Assembly (NCBI GenBank): GCA_020148145.1
Contig: JAHCRE010000016.1
Location: 4,456 to 68,455 of the forward strand
DNA length: 64,000 bases
Reading direction: 5' to 3'
Source of the DNA: Patescibacteria group bacterium
Lineage (GTDB): Bacteria > Patescibacteriota > Minisyncoccia > Minisyncoccales > JAHCRE01
The notes under the pieces: generated by a model
What the model was told of the DNA's origin: nothing
Seen by the model: only the letters and a program-made list of their open reading frames with translations
Databases searched by the model: none
Made by a program: the position numbers and the translations under genes
Shown: in pieces, positions 7,528 to 45,253 of the stretch
How positions within the stretch are numbered: the first letter of the stretch is position 1
How the letters are laid out: each line of letters opens with the position of its first letter

Positions 7528-8091
7528 ATGAATCCACATATTTCTCTTGCTAAATTGGCGGTTGAAACTTATATCAAGGAAGGGAAAATAATTTCTCCGC
7601 CTGATGATTTGCCAGCAGAATTTTTTAAAAAAAAGGCAGGAACTTTTGTGACCATTGAGAAAAGTGGAGATTTAAGGGGTTGTATTGGGACTTATTTGCC
7701 TCTTCGGCAGAATATTGCTGAAGAAATAATCAAAAATGCCATTGCGGCAGCTACTGAAGATTATCGATTTGGGCTAATCAAAGAAGAAGAGCTTCTCCAC
7801 CTCTCTTTTACTGTTTACATTTTAAATGAACCGGAATTGGTTAAAAATACTTCTGAGTTAGATTCAAAGAAATATGGAATAATTGTCAAAACCGTACCTA
7901 TTACCAAGTCGAATGGTACTGATGTAGTTTTTAATGGTCATGTTCCTCACAAGAGCGGACTTTTACTTCCTGATTTAGATGGCGTGGATACTGTAGAAAA
8001 ACAAATTTCTATTGCCTGCCAAAAAGGGGGAATTGATCCGAAATCTGAGAAAATTTTAATTTATAAATTTACAGTAGAGAAATATCAATAA
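7528..8091 (+). CDS. amrA: AMMECR1-domain protein (AmmeMemoRadiSam system protein A)
   Basis: 187 aa. Hallmark AGTFVTIEKSGDLRGCIGT motif. Confidence 0.85.
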   Translation: MNPHISLAKLAVETYIKEGKIISPPDDLPAEFFKKKAGTFVTIEKSGDLRGCIGTYLPLRQNIAEEIIKNAIAAATEDYRFGLIKEEELLHLSFTVYILNEPELVKNTSELDSKKYGIIVKTVPITKSNGTDVVFNGHVPHKSGLLLPDLDGVDTVEKQISIACQKGGIDPKSEKILIYKFTVEKYQ

Positions 8092-9541: not shown

Positions 9542-9632
9542 TCTGCTTTCTCCTCTTGTTTGTCAATGAACTATTTCTAATACAACAATAGCAAACAACC
9601 TTAAAAAAGTCAAGTATTTAGGAATTAAAAAG

Positions 9633-9651
9633 AGCGGCTCTTTGAGCCGCT
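9633..9651 (-). terminator. hairpin terminator after the FAD oxidoreductase gene
   Basis: Minus strand reads AGCGGCTC-AAA-GAGCCGCT followed by CTTTTT. Near-duplicate of the hairpin at 8110. Confidence 0.6.
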
Positions 9652-9748
9652 TTCTTGTTTTTTGGTTTTGTCTTTTTCTTTCTGAAAATTCTCAAGTTTC
9701 ACTTAGTGTTTAAAACATTTTTTCCCGGATCTTTCATCGCTTTCTCAA

Positions 9749-11149: not shown

Positions 11150-11357
11150 CTCCTTGTCATTTTCTATTCCTCTTTTCTCTCTTTCTTTCTTTTACCTGTT
11201 TTTTTATCTCTTTTATCCTTTCCTGGATTACTCTCGGGTCATAGCTTTCTTTTTGGCTAAAGCGATTAGCTCTTTTCATCCCAACTATCACCTCACTCCA
11301 CCTAATTTAAAACGAACCGTTTCTAATATAGCAAATAGTTCTAAAATGTCAATAATT

Positions 11358-11657
11358 TTACACTTTTTCTAACAAGTCCTGGCAAAACTCTCTCATCTTT
11401 TCAAGCTCTGCTATCCCCTCTTTTGTTGTTCTATATGCTTTCTTTCCCTTATATTTTTCTCTTCTAATATATCCTTGATTTCTAAGACGATATAACACTC
11501 TGGAGGTTAAGAATTTTCCGGGCAAAAATCCGAATTTTTCAAAAATTAATCTCCGAACCTCATCATTAGAGATTTCTTGCTCTTTACCTAAGATTAGAAT
11601 ATAAATCCAGAGATTATTTTCAGTATTTGATTTTTTAAATCTTTCGAAGGGTTCCAT
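11358..11657 (-). CDS. PadR-family transcriptional regulator
   Basis: 99 aa winged-helix protein (LWIYILILGKE .. SRVLYRLRNQGYIRRE). Paralog of 13044-13346. Confidence 0.7.
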   Translation of the reverse strand: MEPFERFKKSNTENNLWIYILILGKEQEISNDEVRRLIFEKFGFLPGKFLTSRVLYRLRNQGYIRREKYKGKKAYRTTKEGIAELEKMREFCQDLLEKV

Positions 11658-11674
11658 AGTGGTGATTCAAGTTT

Positions 11675-11867
11675 AGTCGCTCGCCCTCTCCAGTCTCCGA
11701 CTGGCGCTCGGCCTTCGGCCTCGCTTCGGGCTCGCTCTTTAAAAACCCACGGTTTTTAATATTTTCCTACACGGGAGAACCGGAAGGTTCTCCCAGACGG
11801 GGCTTTCCGACTCAACCCGCTTCGCAGGCTTCGCGGAGAAGCCTCGCGTCTTGACCGACCCCTCTCC
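11675..11867. repeat. GC-rich mosaic hairpin element, family B
   Basis: Minus strand reads GGGAGAACCTTCCGGTTCTCCCGTGTAGGAAAATATTAAAAACCGTGGGTTTTTAAAGAGCGAGCCCGAAG. It also carries a GACGCGAGGC..GCGAAGCG module shared with the family A long form. Confidence 0.7.
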
Positions 11868-11892
11868 GATTTGGGTTATCTTTATTAAATTA

Positions 11893-12996
11893 TTACCGTT
11901 CTCTTTTCTCTAAAATAAATTCTTCGACCATTTCTCTTGCTTTTTCATCAGTAAATTGTTGAGGGGGTGATTTCATAAAATAGGCTGAGGCTGAGATTAA
12001 TGGTCCCCCTATTTCTCTATCCAAGGCTAATTTTGCTAATCTTATAGCATCAATTACGCAACCTGCCGAATTTGACGAATCTTCAACATTTAAACGAAGC
12101 TCAAGGCCCATGGGTATATCTCCAAATTGTCTTCCTTCTATTCTAATAAAAGCAATTTTTTTATCTTTTAACCAGGGAACATAGTCAGAAGGCCCAATAT
12201 GTAAATTGTCATAACTTAATCTTTTTGAAAGCTGCGATTCAACACTTTCTGTTTTTGAAATTTTCTTTGATTTAAGCCTTTCCCGAGAAAGCATATTCAA
12301 GAAATCAGTGTTTCCACCTACATTTAATTGATAAGATTTATCTATTTTTACTCCCCTTTTAGAGCAAAGATGCGATAGGACCCGATGGACAATTGTTGCT
12401 CCAATTTGGCTTTTTATATCATCTCCAATAATTGGTAAGTTTTTCTTTTTAAATTTTTCTGCCCACTTAATATCGGAAGCAATAAAAACTGGCATACAAT
12501 TAATAAAAGCGCAATTAGCTTTAAGGGCTTCTCTTGCATAGAATCTTGCTGCTTTTTCTGAACCGACTGGGACATAATTGATTAAAATTTCAGCCCCCGA
12601 CCTTTTCAATTCTTTAGCTACATTTGTTGGTTTTTCCTTTTTGGGCACGAATATTTTTTCTTCGGGATAATCTTTTAAATGTTTAGCCACTCCATCTAAA
12701 ATTGGACCCATTTTTACAATTAGTCTTAAATTTGGTATTTTAGAATAAAAGACCTTTGTACAATTTGGTTTGGCAAATATTGCTTCAGAGAGGTCTTTCC
12801 CAACCTTTCTTTTATCAATATCAAAAGCAGCCACCAGCCTTATATCAGAGACTTTGTATTTCCCAACAAGATTATGCATAAGACCAGGAATTAGTTTATC
12901 ATCACTGGTAACGCCTTTGTAATGAAAAATACCCTGAATTAAAGCTGAGGCACAGTTCCCTATTCCTACAATAGCAATCTTAATATTTTTTCTCAT
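11893..12996 (-). CDS. ino1: inositol-3-phosphate synthase (myo-inositol-1-phosphate synthase, archaeal/bacterial short type)
   Basis: 367 aa. N-terminal Rossmann IKIAIVGIGNCASALIQGI. Conserved central and C-terminal blocks (GDDIKSQIGAT, NSAGCVIDAIR). Confidence 0.8.
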   Translation of the reverse strand: MRKNIKIAIVGIGNCASALIQGIFHYKGVTSDDKLIPGLMHNLVGKYKVSDIRLVAAFDIDKRKVGKDLSEAIFAKPNCTKVFYSKIPNLRLIVKMGPILDGVAKHLKDYPEEKIFVPKKEKPTNVAKELKRSGAEILINYVPVGSEKAARFYAREALKANCAFINCMPVFIASDIKWAEKFKKKNLPIIGDDIKSQIGATIVHRVLSHLCSKRGVKIDKSYQLNVGGNTDFLNMLSRERLKSKKISKTESVESQLSKRLSYDNLHIGPSDYVPWLKDKKIAFIRIEGRQFGDIPMGLELRLNVEDSSNSAGCVIDAIRLAKLALDREIGGPLISASAYFMKSPPQQFTDEKAREMVEEFILEKRER

Positions 12997-17703: not shown

Positions 17704-19854
17704 TTAGAGCTCAGTCCATTCCTTCTTTTCTTCTTTCCTTTTCTCTCTAAATAACAAGGATGAAATAATTAATATCACTGTAACAAGAAGTAAAATCCAG
17801 CAGCTCGAACGGCAGAAGAAACAGTACAAAATAACTAATATAACCGTAGCAAGAAGTAAAATCCATCGCTTCTTTCTCTCTTCTCTTTTCTTTTTAGATA
17901 ACAAGAATAAGATAACTAATACGACTATAACAAGGAAGGAAAGACGACAGAGGTTTTCGAAGTTAAAGAAACTAACAACTGCTGCTAAAAGTTTCTCTAA
18001 GCCTGTTTTGGGCTCCTCTTCTTCTTCGGCTAATTTTTCTTCCTCTTCAGGTTTTTCTTCCTCTTCAGGTTTTTCTTCCTCCTCGGGTTTTGCTTCTTCT
18101 TCAACTTCTTCAATAATCTCTTCTTCAACCTCAACCTCTGGAACTTCGGGTGGAGTTGGAGGAGAAATTTTCTCTATCTCTTCTCTTAATGCCTCTGTCC
18201 TATCCCCTATTTCTTCCAGTGCCTTTTCTATATCTTCAAGAGAAATTTCCTCTATTACCTCTTCTTCAACACCTTCTTCTTCAGCGCTTCCGGTAGTAAA
18301 GGTTAGCTCATCCCCTAAAATCTCAGGTGAACTTTGAGAAACTGCTCGCCAGTAGTAAGTAGTATCAGGAGTTAAACCAGTAATTGTTACTGTATGGAAA
18401 GTGACTTTAGTTGGATCCTCAATAGTTGAATTAGCATAGCCATAATTTGGGGCGTCGCCTAAAGTAGGATGAGAAACAATATCATAAATCACCCTGCTGG
18501 TAGCTGAAATATTGGTAAGCCAAGTAACAGTAGCTGTATCGGCCTGAACCTCTTCGTTTTCTTCATTAAATATAATTAAACGAGTAGGACCAGGACCACC
18601 GGTCATGACAGGACCACCGGGAGTAACTTCACAGGCTGGATCCCCTTCGCAGTCACTATCATCGCAGTCTGCATAACCATCGCAATCGTCATCTAAATCA
18701 TTGTCACAAATTTCAGTGACAGGCTCATTGTCAGGCACACATTCGTCCCAGAAACCGTCTCCATCGCAAGTTTGGGTACCAACAGCACAAATACCCGATT
18801 GGCCAGTATCACATGATTGTGTTTCTTCTGGCTCGCATTCTGGTTGACAATCAGTGTCATCATCGTCAATGTCGCCGTCGCAATCATTATCTATTCCATC
18901 ATTACATATTTCTTCAGCGCCAGGATTAACTTCTGGATTAGTGTCATCACAATCGTCACCTTCTAAACAATAAATCTCGTCATAAGCATAATAACCATCT
19001 CCGTCAGCGTCAGTGCATTCTGGCCCCGGACCTTCTAATTGACATTGACTTGAGCAACCGTCGCCGTCATCAATGTTTCCATCGTCACATTTTTCACCTT
19101 CCTCTACTATTCCATTTCCGCATACTGGCTCAACAGTTTCTTCTTCGCATATACAATTAATACAAACCATCCCTTCGTCACAATCTCCATCGCATTCACA
19201 TTCTTCGCCATCATCTAAAATACCATCGCCACAATAAGGACCAGTTAATTCAACAATTTCACATTCGAGAGAACAATAAGTACAAGTGGACCCATATTCA
19301 GGAGTACATTCTTGGCCATTGTTTTCTCCTTCATCACATTCCTCGCCATCATCTAAAACTCCGTCACCACAATAAGGCTCAGGTTCCTCTTCTTGGTAGT
19401 TACCAAAATTTATTCCATACTTACAATAATTTTCTATCTCGACAAGGTGACAGCCATTATTTTCAGTGGGATAGGTTTGCTCCCAGCCTTCTTGCTGAAC
19501 TTCACAGATGGTGTAAGAACCCGGAGATAAATTAGAAAACCTGTACTTACCTCGCTTATTAGTAACAGTGGAATCGCTGAATTGCTCAGGGCCCTCAATA
19601 GTAATGGTCCATCCTTGAAGACCTGACTCACAATAATTTTTTACTCCATTACCATTTTTGTCGTTAAATTTCATTCCTGAAATAGCGTAGGTTGGTTCAG
19701 ATGGACAAAAAGAACATGCTAATGCCTGCGAAGAAAAACTGAACACTGAAAATACAAAGCCACCTACAAAAATCGCAACGAAAATTAACATTAGAGCCTT
19801 TTTGGAATAATTTACTTTTTTTGAGTTGGAGATACGAATTGAGAAAATATTCAT
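17704..19854 (-). CDS. large secreted/anchored Cys-rich repeat surface protein
   Basis: 716 aa. Domains in order:
- Signal/TM segment.
- SdrD-B/Cna-B-like domain (KRGKYRFSNLSPGSYTICE).
- Repeated YCGDGxxDDGEECD Cys repeats.
- DADGDGY..DCDDTNPxVNPG metal-binding-type repeats.
- FN3-like domain (VTWLTNISATSRV..TPDTTYYWRAVS).
- EEEKPEE low-complexity tract.
- C-terminal TM helices. Confidence 0.75.
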   Translation of the reverse strand: MNIFSIRISNSKKVNYSKKALMLIFVAIFVGGFVFSVFSFSSQALACSFCPSEPTYAISGMKFNDKNGNGVKNYCESGLQGWTITIEGPEQFSDSTVTNKRGKYRFSNLSPGSYTICEVQQEGWEQTYPTENNGCHLVEIENYCKYGINFGNYQEEEPEPYCGDGVLDDGEECDEGENNGQECTPEYGSTCTYCSLECEIVELTGPYCGDGILDDGEECECDGDCDEGMVCINCICEEETVEPVCGNGIVEEGEKCDDGNIDDGDGCSSQCQLEGPGPECTDADGDGYYAYDEIYCLEGDDCDDTNPEVNPGAEEICNDGIDNDCDGDIDDDDTDCQPECEPEETQSCDTGQSGICAVGTQTCDGDGFWDECVPDNEPVTEICDNDLDDDCDGYADCDDSDCEGDPACEVTPGGPVMTGGPGPTRLIIFNEENEEVQADTATVTWLTNISATSRVIYDIVSHPTLGDAPNYGYANSTIEDPTKVTFHTVTITGLTPDTTYYWRAVSQSSPEILGDELTFTTGSAEEEGVEEEVIEEISLEDIEKALEEIGDRTEALREEIEKISPPTPPEVPEVEVEEEIIEEVEEEAKPEEEEKPEEEEKPEEEEKLAEEEEEPKTGLEKLLAAVVSFFNFENLCRLSFLVIVVLVILFLLSKKKREERKKRWILLLATVILVILYCFFCRSSCWILLLVTVILIISSLLFREKRKEEKKEWTEL
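18034..18100 (-). repeat. 18-bp tandem repeat encoding (EEKPEE)n
   Basis: tttttcttcctcttcagg occurs about 3.5 times on the plus strand. Confidence 0.85.
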
Positions 19855-34447: not shown

Positions 34448-34603
34448 ACTCTCACCTCCCGACCATTACGCCGCGTTTCATACCCATCCATTTCTTTGAT
34501 GGGCTTCTCCCCTTTACAATCCTTTTAGACTGCTTTAGAGAGATTTAGGCGGTGAAACACCACCCTTTGCACCCATCATCTAATTGTCAAGATGCTAACT
34601 TCA

Positions 34604-34632
34604 AATATAACAAAAAATGAAAATTTTGTCAA
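34604..34632 (-). promoter_or_regulatory. promoter of the Cas12/TnpB-like gene
   Basis: Minus strand TTGACA (34627-34632), 17 bp, TATATT (34604-34609). Leaves a 5' UTR of about 150 nt that contains a second TTGACA (34585-34590) and small hairpins. Confidence 0.65.
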
Positions 34633-34696
34633 ATAAAACCGAGTGAAACTCTCGGGGGTGGGCGACGGCGAAAATAGAAAAGCCCTAAATAGGGCT
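34631..34696 (-). terminator. tandem terminators closing array A3
   Basis: Minus strand AAGCCCTATTTAGGGCT + TTTCTATTTT (34671-34696), then CCGAG-AGTTTCA-CTCGG + TTTTATTT (34631-34658). Confidence 0.65.
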
Positions 34697-34729
34697 TAAG
34701 GCTTAAAAGTATTATGACATGGGAATCTA

Positions 34730-35060
34730 ATTACAAATTCAAATGGACGGATTATTACTGTCATCCAAGCATTGTTACAGATTAAGTCGCTTCCAACTTG
34801 GCATAATTTTTATCGAATTACAAAATTTCGGAGGATCAGATTTCCAGCTATTACAAGATTTCGGAAGACCTCACCGACGATTGGAATTACAGGACTTCAG
34901 AGATGTGTATAATTACAAAATTTCGGAAAGTCACTAGGGTCAAATTGGTTACCTTTTTAAGCTTTTCGAAGACGATGGACAAGTATTACAAATGTCTGAA
35001 ATCTGCGGAAATTACAAGATTGCAGAGAATGGCTTCGACGGTTACAAGATTTCGGGAAAT
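34730..35060 (-). CRISPR. CRISPR-like mini-array A3 (about 9 units)
   Basis: Main repeat at 34817, 34850, 34886, 34912, 34985, 35011 and 35041. Degenerate copy at 34730. Variant repeat at 34774. The distal ~140 bp are nearly identical to the distal end of A6. Confidence 0.6.
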
Positions 35061-35136
35061 CGATGTATCATTGCACTTGTTACCTCTTTAGTCTTTTAGA
35101 TGAACGAGGCAGGTCGAGGAGTTAATCTTTTCCACC

Positions 35137-35260
35137 GAACAACACTGTCTTTTTGTTTTCAAAGAACTATTTACCTCCTCCATGGTCCCTGGGACCACTT
35201 TGAGAAATATTATGGGCATGTAACATACCCAGGTATAGAAAAGCCTTGCCTTTCTATCCA
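35137..35260 (-). ncRNA. conserved structured leader RNA L3
   Basis: Paralog of L1. Hairpin 3 is GGUCC-CAG-GGACC here versus UAUUCC..GGAAUA in L1, a compensatory change. Hairpin 1 is UAGAAAGGC-AAG-GCUUUUCUA. Confidence 0.6.
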
Positions 35261-35266
35261 TTTTTA

Positions 35267-35295
35267 AAAATAGCAAAAGAGAGATTCTTTGTCAA
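35267..35295 (-). promoter_or_regulatory. promoter of cassette A3
   Basis: Minus strand TTGACA (35290-35295), 17 bp, TATTTT (35267-35272). Confidence 0.55.
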
Positions 35296-35318
35296 ACAAA
35301 AAAGCCCTGAATAGGGCC
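35296..35318 (-). terminator. intrinsic terminator closing array A4
   Basis: Minus strand GGCCCTATTCAGGGC + TTTTTTGTTT. Confidence 0.65.
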
Positions 35319-35350
35319 TAAGTTTAAAGAACAATTCAAAATAATCCCAA

Positions 35351-35915
35351 GTTACAAAGATGTGATTCAATATTCAATCTGTTCTTTATTACTTCACGAA
35401 CGGAGGAAAGTATGAGTTACAGTAATATTCTTTTTTTGCACCAACAGCCTTTTGTTACAGATTAAATCGCTTCCAACCTGGCATGATTCTTATCGAATTA
35501 CAAGATTTCGGAGAATCATCGGTGTGCTTCTATTACAAGGTCTCGGCAAATCTTGGGCAATGGTAGTTGCATTACAAGATTTCTGAAAATCTATCTGCTT
35601 CATTACGATAGAGTTTCGCTAACAAAGTCTCGTTGTAATGTCCGGCGTTACATACTTGAAAGTGTGAAGTTACAGATTAAATCGCTTCCTCGGAGGCTTC
35701 AGATTACAAGATTTCGGAGAATGACACATATTGAGGATCCTTTAATTACAAGATTTCGGGAAATCGGACATGTGGTCTTCTTATTACAAAATTTCGGATT
35801 TGTTCGCCCTCGCCTCAATTACAAGATTTCGGAGAATCGTTCCAGTCTGGTCGGGCGGCATTACAAGATTTTGGGAGATTATCAGAGTATATCGTAATAT
35901 TACAATAGTCATTTA
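35351..35915 (-). CRISPR. CRISPR-like mini-array A4 (about 13 units)
   Basis: Main repeat at 35497, 35532, 35571, 35703, 35745, 35783, 35818 and 35860. Degenerate copies at 35351, 35602 and 35899. Variant repeat at 35454 and 35669. Spacers between clean repeats are 15, 19, 11, 22, 18, about 15-19 and 22 nt. Confidence 0.65.
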
Positions 35916-35997
35916 GGAACATCGACGTTACTCTACATCTTAAACCAGCGTTACTCTTGAATAAACGGGATAGGTCGAAGAGTTAATCTTTTTCATT

Positions 35998-36122
35998 GAA
36001 CAACACTGTATCCTCTGTTTTTCAAAGAACTATTTACCTCCTCCATGGTCCCTGGGACCACTTTGAGAGATATTATGGGCATGTAACCTACCCAGGCATA
36101 GAAAAGCTTTACCTTTCTATCC
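35998..36122 (-). ncRNA. conserved structured leader RNA L4
   Basis: Paralog of L3 with the same three hairpins and GGAGGAGGUAAAUAGUUCUUUGAAAAAC. Confidence 0.6.
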
Positions 36123-36128
36123 ATTTTA

Positions 36129-36157
36129 AAGGTAGCAAAAGAGAGGCTTTTTGTCAA
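36129..36157 (-). promoter_or_regulatory. promoter of cassette A4
   Basis: Minus strand TTGACA (36152-36157), 17 bp, TACCTT (36129-36134). Confidence 0.55.
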
Positions 36158-36169
36158 TGTGGGCGACCA

Positions 36170-36193
36170 AAACAAAAAAGCCCTGAATAGGGC
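36170..36193 (-). terminator. intrinsic terminator closing array A5
   Basis: Minus strand GGCCCTATTCAGGGC + TTTTTTGTTTT. Confidence 0.65.
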
Positions 36194-36226
36194 CTGAGGT
36201 TAAAGAACAATTTGGTAAATGTATCC

Positions 36227-36642
36227 GTTACAAGGGAAAAGCTCGTTTTAAATTACTGCACTACCGATGAGTAAGTGGTTGGGCGAAAGGTTACAGGTTA
36301 CGGCAACACCTCGAAGCACTGTTACAGATTAAATCGCTTTTTTCTTTTGTTTCCTATTATATCTTGACGCCAATTACAAGATTTCGGAAATACCGCGGGC
36401 TCTTATTACAAGATTTCGGATTTGTTCGCCCTCGCCTCAATTACAAGATTTCGGTGAATCGGATATCCCTTATTACAAGATTTCGGAAAATAGCACTAAT
36501 AAGCGAAGCTGGGTTACAAAATTTCGGAAAATGATTGTCAGAGTATTACAAGCTTCATAGGTTGGGACCCGGGGACCGTATTACAAGATTTCGAAAGATC
36601 GCAATGAAATATATCTCGAGGCATTACAAAATTTCAGGAAAT
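36227..36642 (-). CRISPR. CRISPR-like mini-array A5 (about 10 units)
   Basis: Main repeat at 36373, 36405, 36440, 36472, 36513, 36545, 36580 and 36623. Degenerate copy at 36227. Variant repeat at 36321. Confidence 0.6.
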
Positions 36643-36710
36643 AGTATATGACCAATGTTACTTTTCTAAGCTTTGGGGCCAAAGAGATGAAACGTTACCT
36701 CTTTTCCATC

Positions 36711-36835
36711 GAACAACACTGTATCCTCTGTTTGTCAAAGAACTATTTACCTCCTCCATGGTCTCTGGGACCACTTTGTGAGATATTATGGGCATGTAAC
36801 ATACCCAGAGATAGAAAAGCCTTGCCCTTCTATCC
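36711..36835 (-). ncRNA. conserved structured leader RNA L5
   Basis: Paralog of L3/L4. The tail reads GGAGGAGGUAAAUAGUUCUUUGACAAAC. Confidence 0.6.
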
Positions 36836-36841
36836 CTTTTA

Positions 36842-36870
36842 AAGGTAGCAAAAGAGAGATTCTTTGTCAA
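36842..36870 (-). promoter_or_regulatory. promoter of cassette A5
   Basis: Minus strand TTGACA (36865-36870), 17 bp, TACCTT (36842-36847). Confidence 0.55.
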
Positions 36871-36880
36871 TGTGGACGGG

Positions 36881-36908
36881 CGAAAATAAAAAAGCCCTAA
36901 ATAGGGCT
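36881..36908 (-). terminator. intrinsic terminator closing array A6
   Basis: Minus strand AAGCCCTATTTAGGGCT + TTTTTATTTTC. Confidence 0.65.
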
Positions 36909-36941
36909 TAAGGCTTAAAAATATTATGACATGGGAATCTA

Positions 36942-37500
36942 ATTACAAATTCAAATGGACGGATTATTACTGTCATCCAAGCATTGTTACAGATTAAATC
37001 GCTTTCAACCTGGCATAATTTTTATCGAATTACAAAATTTCGGATTTGTTCGCCCTCGCCTCAATTACAAGATTTCGGGAGATTAAAGATAAAAGTCGTT
37101 GTCTACGAGTTCGATGAAATTACATGAAACATTTTCAGACTCATGGTGTTACTAGGCTACTTGAATCAGCTTGAATTACAAGATTTCGGAGGATCAACCA
37201 ATTGGCGGCATATTACAAGATTTCGGAAGATCGCTCGATCAAATTACCCCAACGAGTCTTCAAATTACAAGATTTCGTCGTATTTCCAGTTACAGATTAA
37301 ATTGCTTCCTCGGAGACTTCAGATTACAAGATTTCGGATAATGGAAGGTGGTTACTTTTGACAACAGCAAATAAACGAGTTCGCATTACAAAATTTTGGA
37401 GAATCCACGTGTCACAAACCATGTTATCGATCAGTTACAGGGGTGAGGAATTACAAGATCTCGGAATTCTCATTGAATGGGAATTACATGATGTTTTGAC
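36942..37500 (-). CRISPR. CRISPR-like mini-array A6 (about 13 units)
   Basis: Main repeat at 37029, 37064, 37175, 37212, 37264, 37323, 37385 and 37450. Degenerate copies at 36942, 37119 and 37483. Variant repeat at 36986 and 37289. Confidence 0.6.
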
Positions 37501-37504
37501 TTAT

Positions 37505-37626
37505 ATTACTGACTTCTTCGCTTGTCAAAGAACTATTTACCTCCTCCATATTCTTGAGGAATACTTCGGTAGATATTATGGGCATGTAACATACCCGTGG
37601 ATAGAAAGGTATACCTTTCTATCCGC
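37505..37626 (-). ncRNA. conserved structured leader RNA L6
   Basis: Paralog of L2. Hairpin 1 is a perfect 11-bp stem GGAUAGAAAGG-UAUA-CCUUUCUAUCC. Hairpin 3 is UAUUC-CUCAA-GAAUA. Confidence 0.6.
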
Positions 37627-37632
37627 TGATTA

Positions 37633-37661
37633 AGATTAGCAGAGACATATTCATTTGTCAA
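37633..37661 (-). promoter_or_regulatory. promoter of cassette A6
   Basis: Minus strand TTGACA (37656-37661), 17 bp, TAATCT (37633-37638). Confidence 0.6.
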
Positions 37662-37666
37662 GCAAA

Positions 37667-37771
37667 GCCCCGAGACTACAACCCACCCAAGGACGGGGCG
37701 TTTCGCTTCGCAAAAGCGCCTCGCGTCCCGACCACATCCTCCCGCCTTCGGTGGGCCCCTAAACTCTCGGG
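37667..37771 (+). repeat. family A long-form GC-rich element; right copy of the 104-bp identical direct-repeat pair
   Basis: Identical over 104 bp to 26843-26946, in the same orientation. Confidence 0.85.
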
Positions 37772-37853
37772 CGGGCGCGGGCAGTGGGCAAAAATAAAAA
37801 AGCTGAGGATTTAACTCAGCTCATAGTGGTTTTGAAAAAGAGAGCCTCTATAA

Positions 37854-38719: not shown

Positions 38720-39862
38720 TTACTCTTCACCTTTCAGGGCTTCGATTATTGCCAATTCCAAGGGTAATTGTGGTATTGGCGAGTATCTCATTTTGTTTTC
38801 GGCTTCTAAAAAGAGGTTCAAAATTTGGTGGAGTTCTTTTTGCTCAAAATTGGCTGATTGGGCTTTCAGTTTTTGAAACTCTTCTTTTGTTAGACCAGAA
38901 ATTATTGGGTTTTCCCTCTCGCCCCCTGTTATTTTCAAAATCAAGGCCTGTCTTAAATAATTAATTAAAGTTTTGGTAAATTCCCGTAAATCTAACCCTC
39001 TTTCAGTTATCTCATTTAAAAAACTAATTGCCTCAGATGCTTTCTTTTGACAAATAAAGTCAGTAAATTTCTGAATTAAGTTTATTTCAACCAACCCCAG
39101 CAAATCTTTAATATCTTTAACTTTAATTTCTTTTTCTCTTCCCAGGGTACCTGAGAAAGTTAAGGCCTGGTCTAATAGACTTTCAGCATCTCTAATTGAG
39201 CCACTGGAATTTAAGGCAATTAATTCTAAGACTGCTTTCTCGATTTTAATCTTTTCTTTTCTGGAAATGATTTCTAATCTTTTAATAATTTCTGGTATTG
39301 TTAATTTTCGAAAATCAAATCTCTGACATCTTGAAACAATAGTTGGAATCATCTTGTGAATTTCAGTAGTGGCTAAGACAAAAATGGCGTGGGCAGGAGG
39401 TTCTTCTAAGGTTTTTAAAAGAGCATTGGCAGCTTCACGGGTCAACTGATGCGATTCATCGATTATAAATACCTTGTATTTTGATTTCGTTGGTGAGAAC
39501 TTTATTCCATCTCTTAATTCCCTTATTTCATCAATTCCCCGGTGAGAAGCAGCATCAATTTCAATTAAATCTAAAGCTCGACTTTGATTTATTTCTAAAC
39601 AAGAAGGGCATTTATTACAGGGCTCAAAACCTTTTCGATCCTGACAATTCACTGCCTTGGCTAAAAGCCTGGCCAGGGTGGTCTTCCCGGTGCCGCGAGG
39701 CCCAGAAAATAAATAGGCATGGGAAATCATTCCAGAAGAAATAGCATTAGTCAAAGTCTGAACAACGTGTTCCTGGCCAATAATTTCAGAAAAAATCTTT
39801 GGACGATATTTTCTATACAATACTAAGGTCATATAAATAAAGAAAATACAGGGACCCACCAA
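38720..39862 (-). CDS. dnaX: DNA polymerase III subunit gamma/tau (short form)
   Basis: The likely real start is MTLVLYRKYRP. Motifs FSEIIGQEHVV, P-loop GPRGTGKTT, Zn module CQDRKGFEPCNKCPSC, and DEIR/SRC motifs. Confidence 0.9.
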   Translation of the reverse strand: MVGPCIFFIYMTLVLYRKYRPKIFSEIIGQEHVVQTLTNAISSGMISHAYLFSGPRGTGKTTLARLLAKAVNCQDRKGFEPCNKCPSCLEINQSRALDLIEIDAASHRGIDEIRELRDGIKFSPTKSKYKVFIIDESHQLTREAANALLKTLEEPPAHAIFVLATTEIHKMIPTIVSRCQRFDFRKLTIPEIIKRLEIISRKEKIKIEKAVLELIALNSSGSIRDAESLLDQALTFSGTLGREKEIKVKDIKDLLGLVEINLIQKFTDFICQKKASEAISFLNEITERGLDLREFTKTLINYLRQALILKITGGERENPIISGLTKEEFQKLKAQSANFEQKELHQILNLFLEAENKMRYSPIPQLPLELAIIEALKGEE

Positions 39863-39911: not shown

Positions 39912-40505
39912 TTATTTTTTAAAAACAACAAATTTTGAGCCTAAAAAATTCCAAACAAAGGCAAAAAAGGCAGCAAATATAGGAGCGACAGCGCCTGACC
40001 AAATTTTTTCACTCAGTCCAAACTGAAGACCAATAATATTAACAACAATAGAGGCAATTCCAACATTTATCAAAAGACCAACTGTAGTTACCATAAAAAA
40101 TTTTAAAAATTCTCTTGGAGTAGATTTTTCTTTTTTTTCAAAAGTCCAGTACTTATTCCAAAAGTAACTATTTGTTGTAGCTACTAAAAAAGAAATTGCT
40201 TTAAAAACCGAATAAAAAATACCACTAGTAATCCCAGAAATCCAAATCAGTATGTTTAAAACCACCAAATCGATGAAAGTATTTAAAGTTCCCACTAGAA
40301 AGAATTTGGCTGCCTGTAAAATAATCAAGAGTTTCTTCCCAATCAGCGAGGCAACGAACATTCCGAACCCACAAAGAAGAGCCAAAACGATTGGTAAAAA
40401 CCAAGCATAAGGAATGTCTAATTCAATATTTTTTAAGATAAAAAAGAAAAAAATTCCATCCAAAAATCCAATTAAAGCCGCCAAAATAGCGTCTATCTTT
40501 TTCAT
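39912..40505 (-). CDS. GtrA-family membrane protein
   Basis: 197 aa with several TM helices. KFFLVGTLNTFIDLVVLNIL block. Confidence 0.7.
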   Translation of the reverse strand: MKKIDAILAALIGFLDGIFFFFILKNIELDIPYAWFLPIVLALLCGFGMFVASLIGKKLLIILQAAKFFLVGTLNTFIDLVVLNILIWISGITSGIFYSVFKAISFLVATTNSYFWNKYWTFEKKEKSTPREFLKFFMVTTVGLLINVGIASIVVNIIGLQFGLSEKIWSGAVAPIFAAFFAFVWNFLGSKFVVFKK

Positions 40506-40602: not shown

Positions 40603-41646
40603 TTAGGTTTTAGGCTTTTCTTCTTTTAACAAAGGGAACTTGCTATAGGTATCGAGGGTCCAGAAATTCCTGTCGAGTTCAAAGACCATTTTCACTATTT
40701 CTTCAATTCTCTCAAGCGGAATTCGTGTCGGTGGTACATCTGGGGCAGTTAGACTTCCATTGAGGAGTTTACCCCCTCCTCTGTGTTCTTCTTCTTGGAA
40801 ATACCATTCTGGCACCTGTGATATTTCTCCGGGCCGACTGAGTATCCCAAAGCTGGTAATCAAAGGTTTTTTCCCTTGCCGTAGCTGCTCCTCTAGTCTA
40901 ATCATTCCTACGATGTTTATAAAATCTTCTCTTAAGTCGTAGCGGTTATTTGTAAAAATCACTACCCTGCCACTTGAATTCTGTTGAATCACTATTGCTG
41001 CGTCAACACCGAGCTTCCTATGTCTTGCTATTGGTGAAATCATAGGATTCTCGGATTTCACCGTGACTATCCTAAGAATCTTACCTCTTCTTTGGATCTC
41101 TGTAACTTTGGCTTTTTCTAATTCCTCTCTTGCTTCAAAGAACAGTTTTTGTTCTTCATATTTAGCATCTAAGATTTCAAAGGCCGTTTCTAAAACCTTC
41201 TCTGGATTATCTGAATATTTCAAGTTCAGAGATCTTAGAGTATCGGTTAAATCAAGTGGTGTCTTTTGTCCGTGAAGATCGCTTGCCTTGACCAATTTTA
41301 TAATTTGGCTTAAGGCGGGGTCACTCTCAACTCCAAGGTCCTTGGCGATCAAAGTGGTAGCACACTCTTCAGGAAATTTCTGGGGAGGGTGATGATCAAA
41401 TCTAGCGAACTTTCCGCCAATGTCAATTGGGATAAACTTCTTTCCTTCAGGAATAGGACCCATTCCCCCACTCCAGAAGAGAAATCGGGCTTTTGATATG
41501 TCTTGGTACTTTTTCTCACCAAACTTTTGTAAAAGCCAGGCTCCGGTTATCGCATCTACATCGGGGTGCTTGTGTAAGACAAGAACCCATTCTTTATTCT
41601 TTATCTCTAGCAACTTTTCACCTCCTCTTTTGTTGTTCAAGAGCAA
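40603..41646 (-). CDS. DHH-family-like phosphoesterase (uncertain)
   Basis: ORF of 347 aa. The probable start is the TTG after AGGAGGTGAAAAG (about 41610). Motifs HKHPDVDAITGAWLL and FDHHPP resemble DHH motifs I and III. Confidence 0.45.
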   Translation of the reverse strand: MLLNNKRGGEKLLEIKNKEWVLVLHKHPDVDAITGAWLLQKFGEKKYQDISKARFLFWSGGMGPIPEGKKFIPIDIGGKFARFDHHPPQKFPEECATTLIAKDLGVESDPALSQIIKLVKASDLHGQKTPLDLTDTLRSLNLKYSDNPEKVLETAFEILDAKYEEQKLFFEAREELEKAKVTEIQRRGKILRIVTVKSENPMISPIARHRKLGVDAAIVIQQNSSGRVVIFTNNRYDLREDFINIVGMIRLEEQLRQGKKPLITSFGILSRPGEISQVPEWYFQEEEHRGGGKLLNGSLTAPDVPPTRIPLERIEEIVKMVFELDRNFWTLDTYSKFPLLKEEKPKT

Positions 41647-41675
41647 TTATAAGATGAAATTTTTATTTTTTCATC

Positions 41676-42665
41676 TTACGATTTCATTATATCATATAAT
41701 AAAGTTTTGTCAATAGTTATCTTGAAATAAAAAGAGAGCGAATTAAATTCGCTCTTATTTTCTGGGATTTCCAAATTCAACTTTTCTTTCAAATCTTTGT
41801 AGCGATTCCTGACTGTAACTTCAGTAATGTCAACAGCATCGGCAAAGTCTTTTTGTGTCCTTTTCTCATTATTTTGCAAACAAGCAATATATAAAACGGC
41901 ACAAGCTATACCCCGAGGACCCCTACCAGAAGTAAGACGTTTTTCTCGGGCCTGGTGAAGAATTCTTATGGCTAATCCTTGAGTTTCTCCAGAGATATAG
42001 AGTATTTCAGCAATCTTTGAAATATAGTCGACTGGATTAAGAATAGGCATTGTAATATTAAGTCCTTTAAGTAAAAGTCGGTAACAGTGACCGATTTCTT
42101 TTTTTGATACTAAACTGGCTTTGGCAATTTCTTGGAGGGCTCTAAGGGTTCCAGTCCTTCGGCAGGCTGCATAAAGGGCGGCAGCAGCAATAGCAATAAT
42201 TGATCTACCGCGAACCAGGCCTTCTTTTAAGGCCTTGCGATAAATAACCGCTGCTTCTTTTTGGACTGGCTTTGGAATGTTAAGCCTATTTGAAAGACGA
42301 TCAAGCTCTTCCATTGCCTTGGCTAAATTTCTCTGGATTGCTGAGTGGTATCTGGAACGTATTTGCCATTTTCTTAGACGCCACATTTGGGACTTAGTGC
42401 CTCTGGGAAGTTTTTTTCCGAAAGCATCATAATCTATTGGACTCATAGTAGTCGGTAAACCTTTATCATGAATCAAAAGAGATTCTGGCGCTCCAGCCCG
42501 GGCCCTTTTCTCTTTTTCTTCTTGAGTAAAAGCTCGCCAATCACGTCCTCTATCAATTATTGGCCTTATGACAAAACCGCAATTCCCGCAAACAATTTCG
42601 CCCAAATCATCATCACGAATAAGATTTTGGCTCCCGCATTCTGGACATTTTTCAACTAATTCCAT
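41676..42665 (-). CDS. archaeal-type transcription initiation factor TFB/TFIIB homolog
   Basis: 329 aa. Zn ribbon CPECGS..CGNCGFVI. B-reader/linker RDWRAF..GAPESLLIHDKGLPT. RLRKWQIR. Two cyclin-fold repeats. C-terminal TEVTVRNRYKDL. Driven by TTGACA-17-TATTAT and SD AAGGAGGTGAGAAA. Confidence 0.85.
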   Translation of the reverse strand: MELVEKCPECGSQNLIRDDDLGEIVCGNCGFVIRPIIDRGRDWRAFTQEEKEKRARAGAPESLLIHDKGLPTTMSPIDYDAFGKKLPRGTKSQMWRLRKWQIRSRYHSAIQRNLAKAMEELDRLSNRLNIPKPVQKEAAVIYRKALKEGLVRGRSIIAIAAAALYAACRRTGTLRALQEIAKASLVSKKEIGHCYRLLLKGLNITMPILNPVDYISKIAEILYISGETQGLAIRILHQAREKRLTSGRGPRGIACAVLYIACLQNNEKRTQKDFADAVDITEVTVRNRYKDLKEKLNLEIPENKSEFNSLSFYFKITIDKTLLYDIMKS

Positions 42666-42823
42666 TTTCTCACCTCCTTTTTGTTTTTTTTAAAGAACAA
42701 CTTTACTGATAATATAATAAGGATTAGATAGAATTTTGTCAATAGTTATCTAATTGAAATAAAAAGAGAGCGAATTAGATTCGCTCTTTGGATTTCTCCT
42801 TTTCTGTTCATAATCAGGGAGCT

Positions 42824-43735
42824 TCAAATCGAAATTATAAAGAGCAACCTTTCCGCTAACTCCTTATATCTATTTCTTATCGTAACTTCGGTTACTTGGG
42901 CAATTTCAGCAATATCTTTTTGAGTGTTCCTTTCACCAGTTAATACTGATGCTATATAACTGGAGGCAGCAGCTATTCCTGTTGGGCCTCTTCCCGATGT
43001 GAGTCTCAGTTCTTTTGCTACAACAAGAATTTTATGAGCAATTTCTTCAACCTTTCCCTGCATAGTTAGTTGGTTGGAAAACTTGGTTATATATTGGCTA
43101 GGTTTTATTGGTGGAATAAAGTAATCAAGCTCTTTAACAAGAAATCGATATCTACTCCCTACTTCTTTTTTATCAACATTAGAAGCTTGAGCAACTTCAT
43201 TAAGAGTTCGTGCAAGTCCACATTTTCTACAGGCTATATATATAGCAGCAGCAGTTATACTTTGAACAGATCTACCCCTAACAAGTCCTTTTTTAGCTGC
43301 TTTTCTATAAATAACAGAAGCAGTTTCTAGAGCATTTTTTGGTAAGTTGAGACTATTAGCTATTTTAGAAATTTTAGGTAAAGCAAAGGCTAAATTTCTT
43401 TCTGGAGCATTTGAAATCCTTATTCTTTTTTGCCATTTCCTTAATCTATGAATCTGAGCTTTTTGTTCAGGGGTTAATTTTGTTCCGAAAACATCGCTAT
43501 CACGCCAATCTATCAATGTAGATAATCCTTTATCATGAATTGTCTGAGTTAGAGGTGCTCCAACTCTTACGCGTTTTGCTCTTTGCTCGTCGTCAAAAGC
43601 CCGCCATTCAGCTCCTCTGTCTACTATTCGGCTTATGACAAAACCGCAATTCCCACAAACAACTTCACCTAATGAATCGTAATCATAAATAAGATTTGGG
43701 CTCCCACATTCTGGACATTTATCAGTTAATCCCAT
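42824..43735 (-). CDS. archaeal-type transcription initiation factor TFB/TFIIB homolog (second copy)
   Basis: 303 aa. CPECGS..CGNCGFVISR..GAEWRAFDDEQRAKRVRVGAPLTQTIHDKGLST, RLRKWQKR, two cyclin repeats, TEVTIRNRYKEL. Confidence 0.9.
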   Translation of the reverse strand: MGLTDKCPECGSPNLIYDYDSLGEVVCGNCGFVISRIVDRGAEWRAFDDEQRAKRVRVGAPLTQTIHDKGLSTLIDWRDSDVFGTKLTPEQKAQIHRLRKWQKRIRISNAPERNLAFALPKISKIANSLNLPKNALETASVIYRKAAKKGLVRGRSVQSITAAAIYIACRKCGLARTLNEVAQASNVDKKEVGSRYRFLVKELDYFIPPIKPSQYITKFSNQLTMQGKVEEIAHKILVVAKELRLTSGRGPTGIAAASSYIASVLTGERNTQKDIAEIAQVTEVTIRNRYKELAERLLFIISI

Positions 43736-43849
43736 TTTTTTATCTCCTTATTTTTAAAGGACAACTTTATTAAAATATGATAAATGTTAATTAAAGTTTT
43801 GTCAAAAAAATTATTGTAAAAAGTCAAAAAATAGTATAATAATATAATT

Positions 43850-45253
43850 ATGTTGAAACTTTACAATACTCTATCTCGGAAAAAAGAAGTTTTTAGACCT
43901 CTAAAAAAGAAAAAGGTTGGCCTTTACACTTGTGGCCCAACTGTTTATTGGTTCGCTCATCTTGGAAATTTAAGAACCTATATTTTTGAGGATATTCTAA
44001 AGCGAGTTTTAGAATATAATAGCTACAAGGTAAAGCATTTAATGAATATCACTGATGTTGGCCATTTGACCTCAGATGCTGATACTGGAGAAGACAAAAT
44101 TGAACTGGCGGCAAGAAGAGAAAGAAAAACCGCCCAACAAATTGCCAATTTTTACACCAAAGCTTTTAAGAAAGATTTGGAACGTTTAAACATTAAAAAG
44201 CCAGATATTTGGATTAAAGCAACCGAAACTATAAAAGACCAAATAAATCTGATTAAAATTTTAGAGAAAAAAGGGGTTACCTATAAGATTTCAGATGGAG
44301 TCTATTTTGATACTTCGAAATTAAAAACTTATGGGAGATTATGGGGAAAGAAAAAAATAAAGATAAAACCTGGAGCAAGAATAGCAATGGCTCCGGGAAA
44401 GAAAAGTCCTACTGATTTCGCTTTGTGGAAATTTGCCCCTTCAGGAGTTAAAAGACAGATGGAATGGGATTCTCCCTGGGGTCGAGGGTTTCCTGGTTGG
44501 CATACTGAATGTGTGGTAATGTCAATAAAACATTTAGGAATTCCCTTTGATATCCATACAGGCGGAATTGATCATATCCCAATTCATCATACCAATGAAA
44601 TTGCCCAAGCTGAAGCTGCTTATGGGAAAGTTTTCGCCAGATATTGGCTCCATGGAGAATTTCTGGTGTTAAAAGAAAACAGGATGGGAAAATCAGAAGG
44701 AAATATTATAACTATGGAAAGATTAAAAGAACAAGGATTTAGCCCCTTAGCCTATCGCTACTTATGCCTGAATTGCCATTATCGAAAGAAGCTTCAATTC
44801 TCCTGGTCAGTTTTAAAAGCCAGTCAAAATGCCTTAGATAATTTTTATCAGAAAATATCAGAAATTAGACCTAAAACTATAGCGCGATTTCGACGATCGT
44901 CAAAATCGCGTTATATGCACAATTTTCAGAAAAAATTCTTGAATTTCATTAATGATGATTTGAACATGCCAAAGGCTTTGGCCCTGATGTGGAACGTTTC
45001 AAAAAATAAAAATCTTTCAAATCAGGAAAAATATACAATTTTATTAGATTTTGATAAAATCTTCGCCTTAGATTTAGCTAAAGTTAAAAAACCAAAAATC
45101 TCCCAAAAAATAAAAAAACTGGTTGAAACCAGAGAAAAATATCGTCAAGAAAAAAAGTGGAAAAAAGCTGATGAAATAAGAAAAAAAATTAAGAAAATGG
45201 GTTATCGGATTGAAGATACTAAAAAGGGACCAAAAATCAAAAAATTATTTTAG
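43850..45253 (+). CDS. cysS: cysteine--tRNA ligase
   Basis: 467 aa. The class I HIGH region reads AHLGN. KMSKS reads RMGKSEGN. Typical CysRS N-terminus [12 protein letters not shown]. Contains the family C palindrome in frame ([11 protein letters not shown]). Confidence 0.9.
44882..44910. repeat. family C palindromic element, in frame inside cysS
   Basis: gcgcgatttcgacgatcgtcaaaatcgcg. Confidence 0.75.

Follow-up and report, generated by a model that had tools for sequence, protein, structure and literature searches.

Transcription factor B (TFB in archaea, TFIIB in eukaryotes) is a hallmark of archaeal and eukaryotic transcription, and information-processing genes with multiple partners are expected not to survive transfer from one domain to another. 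The closest described systems are the archaeal TFBs, represented by the Pyrococcus structures 1AIS and 1D3U and by Bathyarchaeia proteins, which contain a zinc ribbon, a B-reader, a B-linker, two cyclin repeats and, at the C-terminus, a helix-turn-helix (HTH) with the motif TEVT[IV]RNRYK. The same architecture was found in two tandem genes, TFB-a and TFB-b, on a 64-kb stretch of contig JAHCRE010000016.1 (hereafter the window) from a Patescibacteria group bacterium, and a TFB was found to be kept in a bacterial clade to which this genome belongs. In contrast to archaeal TFB genes, the bacterial ones lie in a bacterial chromosome under sigma-70 promoters, with Shine-Dalgarno sites and intrinsic terminators, and no TBP or archaeal polymerase gene was seen near the pair in the window. 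In addition, the N-terminus of the bacterial proteins is shortened, several lineages carry a third cyclin repeat, and TFB-a appears to be chimeric.

Several other systems invite comparison. The eukaryotic Brf1/Brf2 and Rrn7/TAF1B proteins resemble bacterial forms of 428-440 aa in having a TFIIB core with a C-terminal extension, and Brf chains were among the fold matches of the TFB-a model. However, the bacterial extension is a duplicated cyclin repeat rather than a TBP-binding tail of the Brf type, and because the bacterial TFBs are nested with one type of archaeal TFB (B-type, see below), they are not orthologous to Brf/Rrn7. Nucleocytoplasmic large DNA viruses encode TFIIB-like proteins, which are likewise TFB-family genes found outside archaea and eukaryotes after capture from a host; in contrast to the situation in the window, where no such enzyme was seen with the TFBs, these viruses bring a matching multisubunit polymerase. 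Host-mimicking factors are known from Legionella, which has eukaryote-like effectors, and from Xanthomonas, whose TAL effectors are transcription factors that act in the host. Finally, bacterial sigma-70 is an initiation factor on equivalent polymerase surfaces, and distant homology between the HTH units of sigma and TFB has been proposed (PMC4581349). In contrast to sigma-70, the bacterial TFBs lack sigma regions 2 and 3, and their Sigma70_r4 matches are at or below threshold and give no accepted domain. Membership of TFB-a and TFB-b in the sigma-70 family was rejected, with regions 2 and 4 not above threshold (Sigma70_r4 on TFB-a scored 16.3 bits against a threshold of 24.1, beside a weak TIGR02937 match).

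No paper describing bacterial or Patescibacteria TFBs was found in the searched literature. A 281-kb NCBI contig encodes both exact proteins, which are already labelled there 'transcription initiation factor IIB [Patescibacteria group bacterium]'.

Two TFB genes in a bacterial chromosome

TFB-a (42824-43735, minus strand), the upstream gene of the pair, is an intact open reading frame (ORF) of 303 aa that encodes a full-length TFB. TFB-b (41676-42665, minus strand), the downstream gene, is an intact ORF of 329 aa in which TFB homology spans 41763-42665. A Pfam search identified the TFIIB zinc ribbon and two TFIIB cyclin repeats in both proteins (E values of 1e-44 and 3e-46), with two stretches of PF00382 in each and the zinc ribbon PF08271 at E values of 3e-12 and 5e-13. 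Moreover, both proteins scored above the curated cut-off of 384 bits of the NCBIfam model NF001658 ('transcription initiation factor IIB'), TFB-a with 427.4 bits and TFB-b with 397.2 bits. The zinc-ribbon signature CPECGS...CGNCG is present in both, its cysteines being retained by all bacterial TFB relatives. TFB-a and TFB-b also contain the B-reader/B-linker motifs EWRAF, IHDKGL and RLRKWQ. Near the C-terminus, the putative helix that reads the B recognition element (BRE), VTEVT[IV]RNRYK[ED]L, aligns to the same helix of 1D3U_B. Only 6 residues precede CPECG in TFB-a and TFB-b, compared with 13-18 in the archaeal orthologues.

The closest solved relatives by sequence are Pyrococcus TFBc chains in the TBP/DNA complexes 1D3U and 1AIS (E ~1e-55). 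The AlphaFold model of TFB-a showed two five-helix repeats with a confident core, in which the predicted local distance difference test score (pLDDT), averaged per 10-residue block, was mostly 81-93 over residues 121-290, with one block at 76. The predicted core superposed on 1D3U_B and 1AIS_B with template modelling (TM) scores of 0.86-0.87 and root-mean-square deviations (rmsd) of 2.4-2.7 Å; for 1D3U_B the values were TM 0.86 and rmsd 2.7 Å at 48% identity. By all sequence and fold tests, TFB-a and TFB-b are genuine members of the TFB family. An earlier note made from the DNA letters had read the locus as two tandem, complete archaeal-type TFB genes, and the coordinates, Pfam, NF001658 and the predicted fold bear this out. 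It had also taken the whole ORF at 41676-42665 for a full-length TFB; the TFB body stands, but the last 28 codons are not TFB sequence.

The pair is embedded among bacterial genes. In the window, cysS (43850-45253, plus strand), which is divergent from the pair and forms the conserved left flank in all TFB-bearing lineages, is followed by TFB-a, TFB-b, a gene here called p347, gtrA (39912-40505, minus strand) and dnaX (38720-39862, minus strand), the last two forming the conserved right flank of the TFB locus. Within a few kb, dnaX, gtrA and cysS, together with dnaB, recR and a gene for a GT4 glycosyltransferase, flank the pair on both sides. The nearest bacterial genes begin less than 120 bp away on one side and 30 bp on the opposite one, and farther out in the window lie genes for Mur ligases and a PBP transpeptidase as well as clpB, efp and L21. 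The earlier assignment of the contig to a bacterium is thereby confirmed by flanking genes on both sides of the pair. Furthermore, GC content shows no break at the TFB genes, and their third-position GC (GC3) values of 0.19 (TFB-a) and 0.30 (TFB-b) compare with 0.22-0.31 for most host genes and 0.51-0.53 for the archaeal orthologue genes. Codon log-likelihoods under host usage likewise fell among the values of host genes for both TFBs and were far removed from those of the archaeal genes. The order DnaB-GT4-CysS-TFBa-TFBb-p347-GtrA-DnaX is the same in NCBI (281 kb), ENA (137 kb) and Logan (8.5 kb) assemblies, the last being an independent assembly of SRR10836662. The sample derives from the Costa Rica Margin subseafloor sediment project, in which Bathyarchaeota average 44.7% of the community. 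The contig is a real Patescibacteria (Paceibacteria-like) chromosome that bears TFB genes.

The expression signals of the pair are also of the bacterial type. A promoter scan placed the three best sigma-70-like sites of the region directly before TFB-a (43777-43805, minus strand; TTGACA-17-TATCAT, 11/12 positions), TFB-b (42714-42742, minus strand; TTGACA-17-TATTAT, 11/12 positions) and p347 (41686-41713, minus strand; TTGACA-16-TATAAT with a TG extension, 12/12 positions), in agreement with the two TFB promoters that had been proposed before. The Shine-Dalgarno sites are AAGGAG for TFB-a (43744-43749, minus strand) and AGGAGG for TFB-b (42673-42678, minus strand), so the GGAGG previously claimed for both genes is found at TFB-b and not at TFB-a. 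Terminator T1 (42757-42788, minus strand), a 9-bp GAGCG-type stem with a T-run (-13.9 kcal/mol), stands after TFB-a, and terminator T2 (41725-41756, minus strand; -13.0 kcal/mol, z -3.8) lies within the 3' end of the TFB-b ORF. Where the archaeal orthologues stop (...LELPD), TFB-b lacks a stop codon, and its frame continues for 28 non-TFB codons (41676-41762, minus strand) through the hairpin and the -35 and -10 elements of the p347 promoter to a TAA. Expression of both TFBs may be inferred from these host-type promoters, Shine-Dalgarno sites and terminators.

In the whole window, sigma-70-like sites matching at least 11/12 positions numbered 14, compared with 4.0 ± 2.0 in shuffles, and all of them lie on the minus strand, which is the orientation of most window genes. 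The form TTGACAA occurs in 11 of these 14 strong sites and is therefore a general promoter form of the host; on this ground, the TTGACAAAA -35 extension was rejected as a BRE-like autoregulatory site. An AT-rich 11-bp hairpin in the p347 leader (41645-41683; -10.1 kcal/mol, z -4.8) overlaps the TFB-b stop.

Origins of the pair and history of the locus

TFB-a and TFB-b are two different archaeal paralogue types and not diverged duplicates. The 119 best listed relatives of TFB-a (self-match aside) are 76-79% identical to it, and the named ones are Bathyarchaeota/Bathyarchaeia TFBs (A set). The best relatives of TFB-b form a different set of Bathyarchaeia TFBs (B set), with 64-67% identity. In one alignment, identity to the A set was 77% for TFB-a and 50% for TFB-b, identity to the B set was 49% for TFB-a and 65% for TFB-b, and the two archaeal sets differed from each other by 54%. 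A neighbour-joining (NJ) tree was calculated from 253 columns, with the N-terminus left out, for 141 TFBs, of which 119 represented clusters at 50% identity. TFB-a grouped with the A set and TFB-b with the B set in 100% of bootstraps each, and the two were sisters in 0%. The divergence between the two proteins that the earlier note had remarked on is real (54% identity), but according to the phylogeny they are not diverged copies of one gene. A simple tandem duplication followed by divergence is ruled out by this tree and by the synonymous divergence (dS) given below.

In the Bathyarchaeia genomes examined, gar1 precedes the A-type gene (one genome) and SUI1 adjoins the B-type gene (three contigs). 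No second TFB was found within 8 kb of an A-type or B-type gene in these genomes, so that no tandem pair transferable as one piece was seen, and the two types were not seen together in the same genome among them. Joint transfer of an archaeal tandem pair was rejected, the two paralogues being at separate loci in these genomes. A viral vector was also rejected: IMG/VR gave only four weak or partial TFB matches, none of them a close relative of TFB-a or TFB-b.

An exhaustive HMMER search with TFB-b against 1.8 billion cluster representatives returned as its top match P0297, a protein of 440 aa assigned to Patescibacteria by NCBI. In three NCBI metagenome-assembled genomes its gene follows RmuC-L21-RecR-DnaB-GT4-CysS and precedes GtrA-DnaX, and two SRA assemblies, one of them from a deep terrestrial groundwater run, contain the TFB-GtrA-DnaX part after a truncated, unidentified upstream gene. 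The lineages with a TFB beside cysS, and also ahead of gtrA-dnaX on contigs long enough to show it, are those of P0297/P0450, P0300 (433 aa), P0312 (338 aa; 11 cluster members, on contigs of up to 342 kb), P0315 (428 aa), P0345 (332 aa) and P0369 (314 aa), the last found in the closest relative of the window genome (76% identity in CysS). The full order cysS, TFB, gtrA, dnaX was seen on contigs L095, L100, L101, L098 (with L103), L106 and L107. Contigs L099 and L109 reach cysS, TFB and gtrA, with cysK in addition on L109, and L110 shows cysS and TFB only. No A-type TFB is present at the cysS-TFB locus of L110, which belongs to the closest relative; therefore, TFB-a was either gained after the split or lost in that relative. 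Between cysS and the single B-type TFB of L110 lies an unrelated 151-aa ORF (938-1393).

In a DnaB tree, the five TFB-bearing genomes with an available dnaB were monophyletic and apart from relatives without an observed TFB. No TFB at the same locus was found in the stretches fetched around the 80 nearest CysS loci of GTDB representatives, a sample that took in neither the source genome nor its TFB-bearing relatives. Several of the TFB-less relatives have cysK or nothing between dnaX and cysS. A cysK gene (PALP cysteine synthase) lies directly upstream of cysS, at ~1 kb, in L008, L010, L013, L015 and L018, the position taken by the TFB pair in the window genome. L109 holds both a TFB and cysK. 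What stands between dnaX and cysS varies within the group.

The bacterial members also have features in common beyond their position. The forms of 428-440 aa (P0297, P0299, P0300 and P0315) contain a third TFIIB repeat with its own HTH; a metagenome scan with a profile of this repeat yielded only another contig of the P0300 lineage and ordinary TFBs. The TFB genes of L095, L098, L106 and L107 have the -35 form TTGACAAAAYT in common with TFB-a, with the leader motif found in L095 as well, and in all four a GAGCG...CGCTC stem with a T-run, related to T2, lies 3' of the gene. In several relatives the ORF ends inside or just past this hairpin and T-run, with the tails NRSFFYSC, LSLSFFI and RSFFIF; the overlap sites are 7440-7510 in L095, 2880-2960 in L098 and 6960-7030 in L106. 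If the hairpin terminates transcription, the TFB mRNAs of these relatives would be without a stop codon. Alternatively, translation across the hairpin might couple TFB translation to read-through into gtrA-dnaX.

A single ancestral gain would be the most economical history of this family. The ancestor of one bacterial clade would have gained a B-type TFB, which would have settled between cysS and gtrA-dnaX and been inherited there; TFB-b would be that resident gene, and the third cyclin repeat would be a later addition in several lineages. In the NJ tree, 100% of bootstraps place all bacterial TFBs on the B-type side (the body of TFB-a being A-type), and TFB-b is sister to P0297 in 57% of bootstraps. 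Two results weigh against a single gain: the bacterial TFBs form one clade in 0% of NJ bootstraps, and every one of them has its smallest distance to the archaeal B set and not to another bacterial TFB. Such closeness fits a star radiation but also repeated recapture, in which the TFB of each lineage, TFB-b included, would have been replaced time and again by fresh archaeal copies through homologous recombination. TFB-a shows that a capture of this kind occurs. However, the distances were calculated to fit a single stem with unequal branches, TFB-b and P0297 have derived residues in common in addition to their grouping, the third repeat is common to P0297, P0299, P0300 and P0315, and the terminator-overlapping tail recurs across lineages. 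We consider recurrent recapture unlikely. It concerns the history of the family only and is compatible with either of the functional models discussed below.

The two TFB units of the window share their ends. Repeat R1 comprises the promoter, the leader and the first codons, with copy a at 43598-43805 (minus strand, codons 1-46) and copy b at 42531-42742 (minus strand, codons 1-45). Repeat R2 (41703-41756 and 42732-42788, minus strand) is a terminator/-35 module with ~95% identity between its copies, its upstream part being T1 in one copy and T2 in the other. Compared as DNA, the two units are 76-81% identical from the -35 to about codon 46; identity falls to 46-61% in the gene bodies and climbs to ~95% over the terminator and the -35 of the following promoter, repeat identity reaching 97% at terminator T1. 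Similarly, dS between TFB-a and TFB-b is 0.32 in codons 1-46 and 2.2-3.5 elsewhere. Identity between the two proteins is 80% over residues 1-30 and thus exceeds that of each protein to its respective archaeal set. TFB-a, TFB-b and other bacterial members have in common N29/F32/I34, a short leader and the loss of one residue after CGFVI; an A/B chimera as the source of the shared N-terminus was dropped because the same residues occur in those other members. The TFB-b promoter is a hybrid, its upstream half resembling the p347 promoter and its downstream half that of TFB-a. R2 occurs in just two copies in the 64 kb, and its interpretation as a dispersed mobile element was rejected.

The 35-nt spacer between the TFB-a stop and T1 (42789-42823, minus strand) aligns to the 3' coding end of TFB-b (...DLKEKLNLEIP) with a score of 27 and is colinear with R2. 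Only 0.1% of shuffles attained this score, as did 3 of 199 other local windows. The spacer probably derives from the 3' coding end of a resident-type TFB, of which it would be the remnant, although the alignment is suggestive only. The near-identity of the terminator-promoter module downstream of each TFB, described in the earlier note, was confirmed, and the gene conversion proposed there (or a local duplication) is supported by the repeat, identity-profile, dS and spacer data. Sharing is not confined to that module, as had been thought, and extends to the 5' end with promoter, leader and ~45 codons.

As judged from these comparisons, TFB-a is a chimera of a resident promoter, leader and first ~45 codons with an A-type Bathyarchaeia body. 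The simplest reading of the shared ends would be a tandem duplication followed by replacement of a body. First, the resident unit (promoter, gene and terminator) would have been duplicated in tandem through unequal recombination at shared TTGACAAAA -35 sites. In the upstream copy, everything beyond about codon 46 would then have been swapped for the body of an A-type Bathyarchaeia TFB, with conserved DNA coding for the zinc ribbon and B-reader as the anchor, and the swap would have given TFB-a its bacterial promoter, leader, Shine-Dalgarno site and N-terminus. Taken as a whole, we regard as very probable an account of intact archaeal TFBs in a Patescibacteria chromosome, derived from an ancestral B-type gain and a subsequent duplication and body swap. 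The locus would be a worked example of how a foreign gene gains bacterial expression signals by fusion to the 5' end of a resident homologue.

Conservation and possible roles of the bacterial TFBs

The two archaeal sets are identical at 128 columns, of which 121 are preserved in TFB-a and 110 in TFB-b, and substitutions are concentrated in variable columns (Fisher test, 2e-10 for TFB-a and 4e-11 for TFB-b). Conservation statistics were used in place of a residue-level mapping of TBP contacts. Four bacterial lineages were compared at columns at least 80% conserved among ~135 diverse TFBs, and the archaeal residue was kept at fractions of 0.97 in the zinc ribbon, 0.90 in the B-reader, 0.88 in the B-linker, 0.91 in cyclin repeat 1 and 0.94 in cyclin repeat 2, compared with 0.45-0.53 in other columns. 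The archaeal-conserved columns of the B-reader and B-linker were kept at 0.80-1.0, and EWRAF, HDKGL and RLRKWQ are retained in most bacterial lineages. Furthermore, an archaeal consensus of at least 0.7 is found in 95 columns; 78 of these are retained by no fewer than 5/6 lineages, one is lost in at least 4/6 lineages, and one has a bacteria-specific residue. When an archaeal TFB gene was drifted neutrally, with an AT bias, to the observed GC3, 0/200 simulated ORFs remained open. Within-lineage dN/dS was uninformative, the available pairs differing by 0-2 nucleotides. The column comparisons and the drift simulation show purifying selection on the archaeal functional residues of the bacterial TFBs.

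The ~52 ORFs of the window were scanned against Pfam, and no TBP or archaeal RNA polymerase subunit was found among them, as the earlier note had stated. The archaeal partner-binding elements that have been kept, together with the lack of a TBP or archaeal polymerase gene in these 64 kb, suggest action on archaeal machinery. We tentatively favour such a host-directed action over a role inside the bacterium, although we hold it to be somewhat short of an even chance. The bacterium would be an episymbiont of an archaeal host and the TFBs host-mimic factors, which would act on the TBP, promoters or polymerase of that host and redirect or titrate its transcription; the second capture would add a housekeeping-type paralogue of the locally dominant archaeon. 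This host-directed model accounts for the retention of contact motifs, the near absence of re-adaptation, the partners missing from the window and the second capture.

Patescibacteria are known to parasitise methanogenic archaea (PMC10936435, PMC12281837). Should the target of the TFBs be an archaeal host, no earlier candidate for a transcription-factor effector aimed at archaea would exist, and the genes would also serve as a sequence marker of Patescibacteria associated with archaea, for most of which no host has been named. The parasites of methanogens presumably belong to the same class as the window genome. On the host-directed model, the TFBs would resemble other host-mimicking effectors in that a symbiont keeps host-derived genes with host-type motifs and acquires them repeatedly. 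In contrast, the Legionella and Xanthomonas effectors have defined secretion systems and signals, none of which is evident here, and the host would be an archaeon.

Several points weigh against host-directed action. The lack of a TBP or an archaeal polymerase subunit refers to 64 kb only. Neither TFB N-terminus looks like a signal peptide, as judged by eye without a predictor, and no secretion genes were seen near the pair. No route is known by which a cytoplasmic protein would pass from a patescibacterium into its host. No evidence ties the TFB-bearing clade to an archaeal host, and DNA uptake from archaea-rich sediment would explain the transfer without symbiosis. The TFB stands among housekeeping genes under a strong, constitutive-looking promoter, as an endogenous factor would. 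In addition, the B-linker is degenerate or deleted in P0315, P0369 and P0297, and fully canonical TFB activity is therefore not kept universally. Moreover, TFB-b and P0369 are 47.5% identical, compared with 76% for CysS between the same genomes, and the bacterial TFBs evolve much faster than housekeeping genes.

Co-option of the TFB as an endogenous factor inside the bacterium is a possibility that we take seriously but consider doubtful. The protein might serve as a DNA-binding regulator through the HTH in its second cyclin repeat (and that in the third, in forms that have one), or its zinc ribbon and B-reader might dock on the bacterial polymerase at surfaces that sigma normally uses. The fixed place among core genes, the near-consensus host promoter with its Shine-Dalgarno site and, by eye, the lack of a signal peptide are consistent with such a role, as are B-linker decay in some lineages and evolution that is rapid relative to housekeeping genes. 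The third repeat with its HTH in the forms of 428-440 aa looks adapted for TBP-free DNA binding. Sigma and TFB have been argued to be homologues at equivalent positions (PMC4581349), and the HTH of the bacterial TFBs gives weak Pfam Sigma70_r4 matches of 16-28 bits. However, new partners should leave bacteria-specific signatures and relax the contact motifs, and the 95 columns contain one such signature and one lost residue, with EWRAF, HDKGL and RLRKWQ still in place in most lineages. The body of TFB-a also remains 77% identical to its archaeal orthologues despite fully ameliorated codon usage, which would be odd for a protein with a bacterial partner.

The narrower proposal that the TFB docks on the bacterium's own polymerase, where it would replace or compete with sigma while its HTHs read promoters without TBP, seems to us quite improbable. 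If true, it would constitute a natural hybrid initiation system across the bacterial/archaeal divide, and any action inside the bacterium would provide a natural test of TFB/sigma interchangeability on a multisubunit polymerase.

The genes might also be neutral passengers, that is, recently transferred and functionless archaeal DNA that has not yet been deleted. TFB-a is known from the window genome only, TFB-b has lost its own stop codon and acquired a read-through tail of 28 codons, and partners are not visible in the window. However, a TFB occupies one locus in seven lineages of a clade whose housekeeping proteins have diverged to 42-76% identity, all of the ORFs are intact, and substitutions avoid the conserved columns. 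Codon usage has ameliorated, a change after which no neutrally drifted ORF was still open, and host promoters, Shine-Dalgarno sites and terminators are in place. We give this explanation little credence overall: for the family it is very unlikely, and for TFB-a alone still unlikely. Finally, a chimera of archaeal and bacterial DNA made in assembly or binning, which the earlier note had named as what would overturn its reading, might be suspected with a factor that is otherwise archaeal or eukaryotic and a sample dominated by archaea, but it is contradicted by the adjacent bacterial genes, the unbroken composition and codon usage, the three concordant assemblies, a best archaeal protein match of at most 79% identity among the matches listed, and the same locus structure in independent samples including deep groundwater, and such an artefact is excluded as far as sequence data permit.

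p347 and other features of the window

The p347 gene (40603-41646, minus strand) lies between TFB-b and gtrA in the window genome only and encodes a protein specific to the candidate phyla radiation (CPR). Its named homologues are Parcubacteria and Zambryskibacteria proteins in another genomic context, most of the matches being unnamed, and p347 was rejected as a co-transferred archaeal gene; nor does it belong to the TFB family. The NCBI name 'chromate resistance protein' rests on a ChrB_C match of 26.5 bits. The homologues are usually 400-436 aa long and adjoin L10/L12 genes. By eye, p347 has the DHH-like motifs HKHPDVDAI, FDHH and GGGK.

Elsewhere in the window, three adjacent genes encode a fusion of an NTP-transferase and a CDP-alcohol phosphatidyltransferase, IPCT/DIPPS-like (8186-9541), an FAD-dependent protein (9749-11149) and a myo-inositol-1-phosphate synthase (11893-12996). 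The genes at 8186-9541 and 9749-11149 have GC3 values of 0.44-0.45 and clearly non-host codon usage, and the inositol-phosphate pathway of the region 8186-12996 was probably acquired horizontally in a recent event of its own. An AmmeMemoRadiSam trio is also present, with a radical SAM protein at 3106-4122, a Memo/LigB protein at 4124-4924 and AMMECR1 at 7528-8091.

Two stretches of this tightly packed genome, 28214-30573 (2.4 kb) and 34448-37853 (3.4 kb), contain no ORF of more than ~135 codons. No Rfam match at E < 0.1 was found in them, save for a sub-threshold gyrA-RNA at 37544-37632, and neither stop-codon recoding nor a known RNA family was found as an explanation. A sigma-70-like site at 37528 (minus strand, 11/12 positions) is directed into the stretch at 34448-37853. 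The ORF at 17704-19854 encodes a protein of 716 aa with SdrD B-like, MopE metal-binding, purple-acid-phosphatase N-terminal and carboxypeptidase-regulatory-like domains, which is probably a surface protein.

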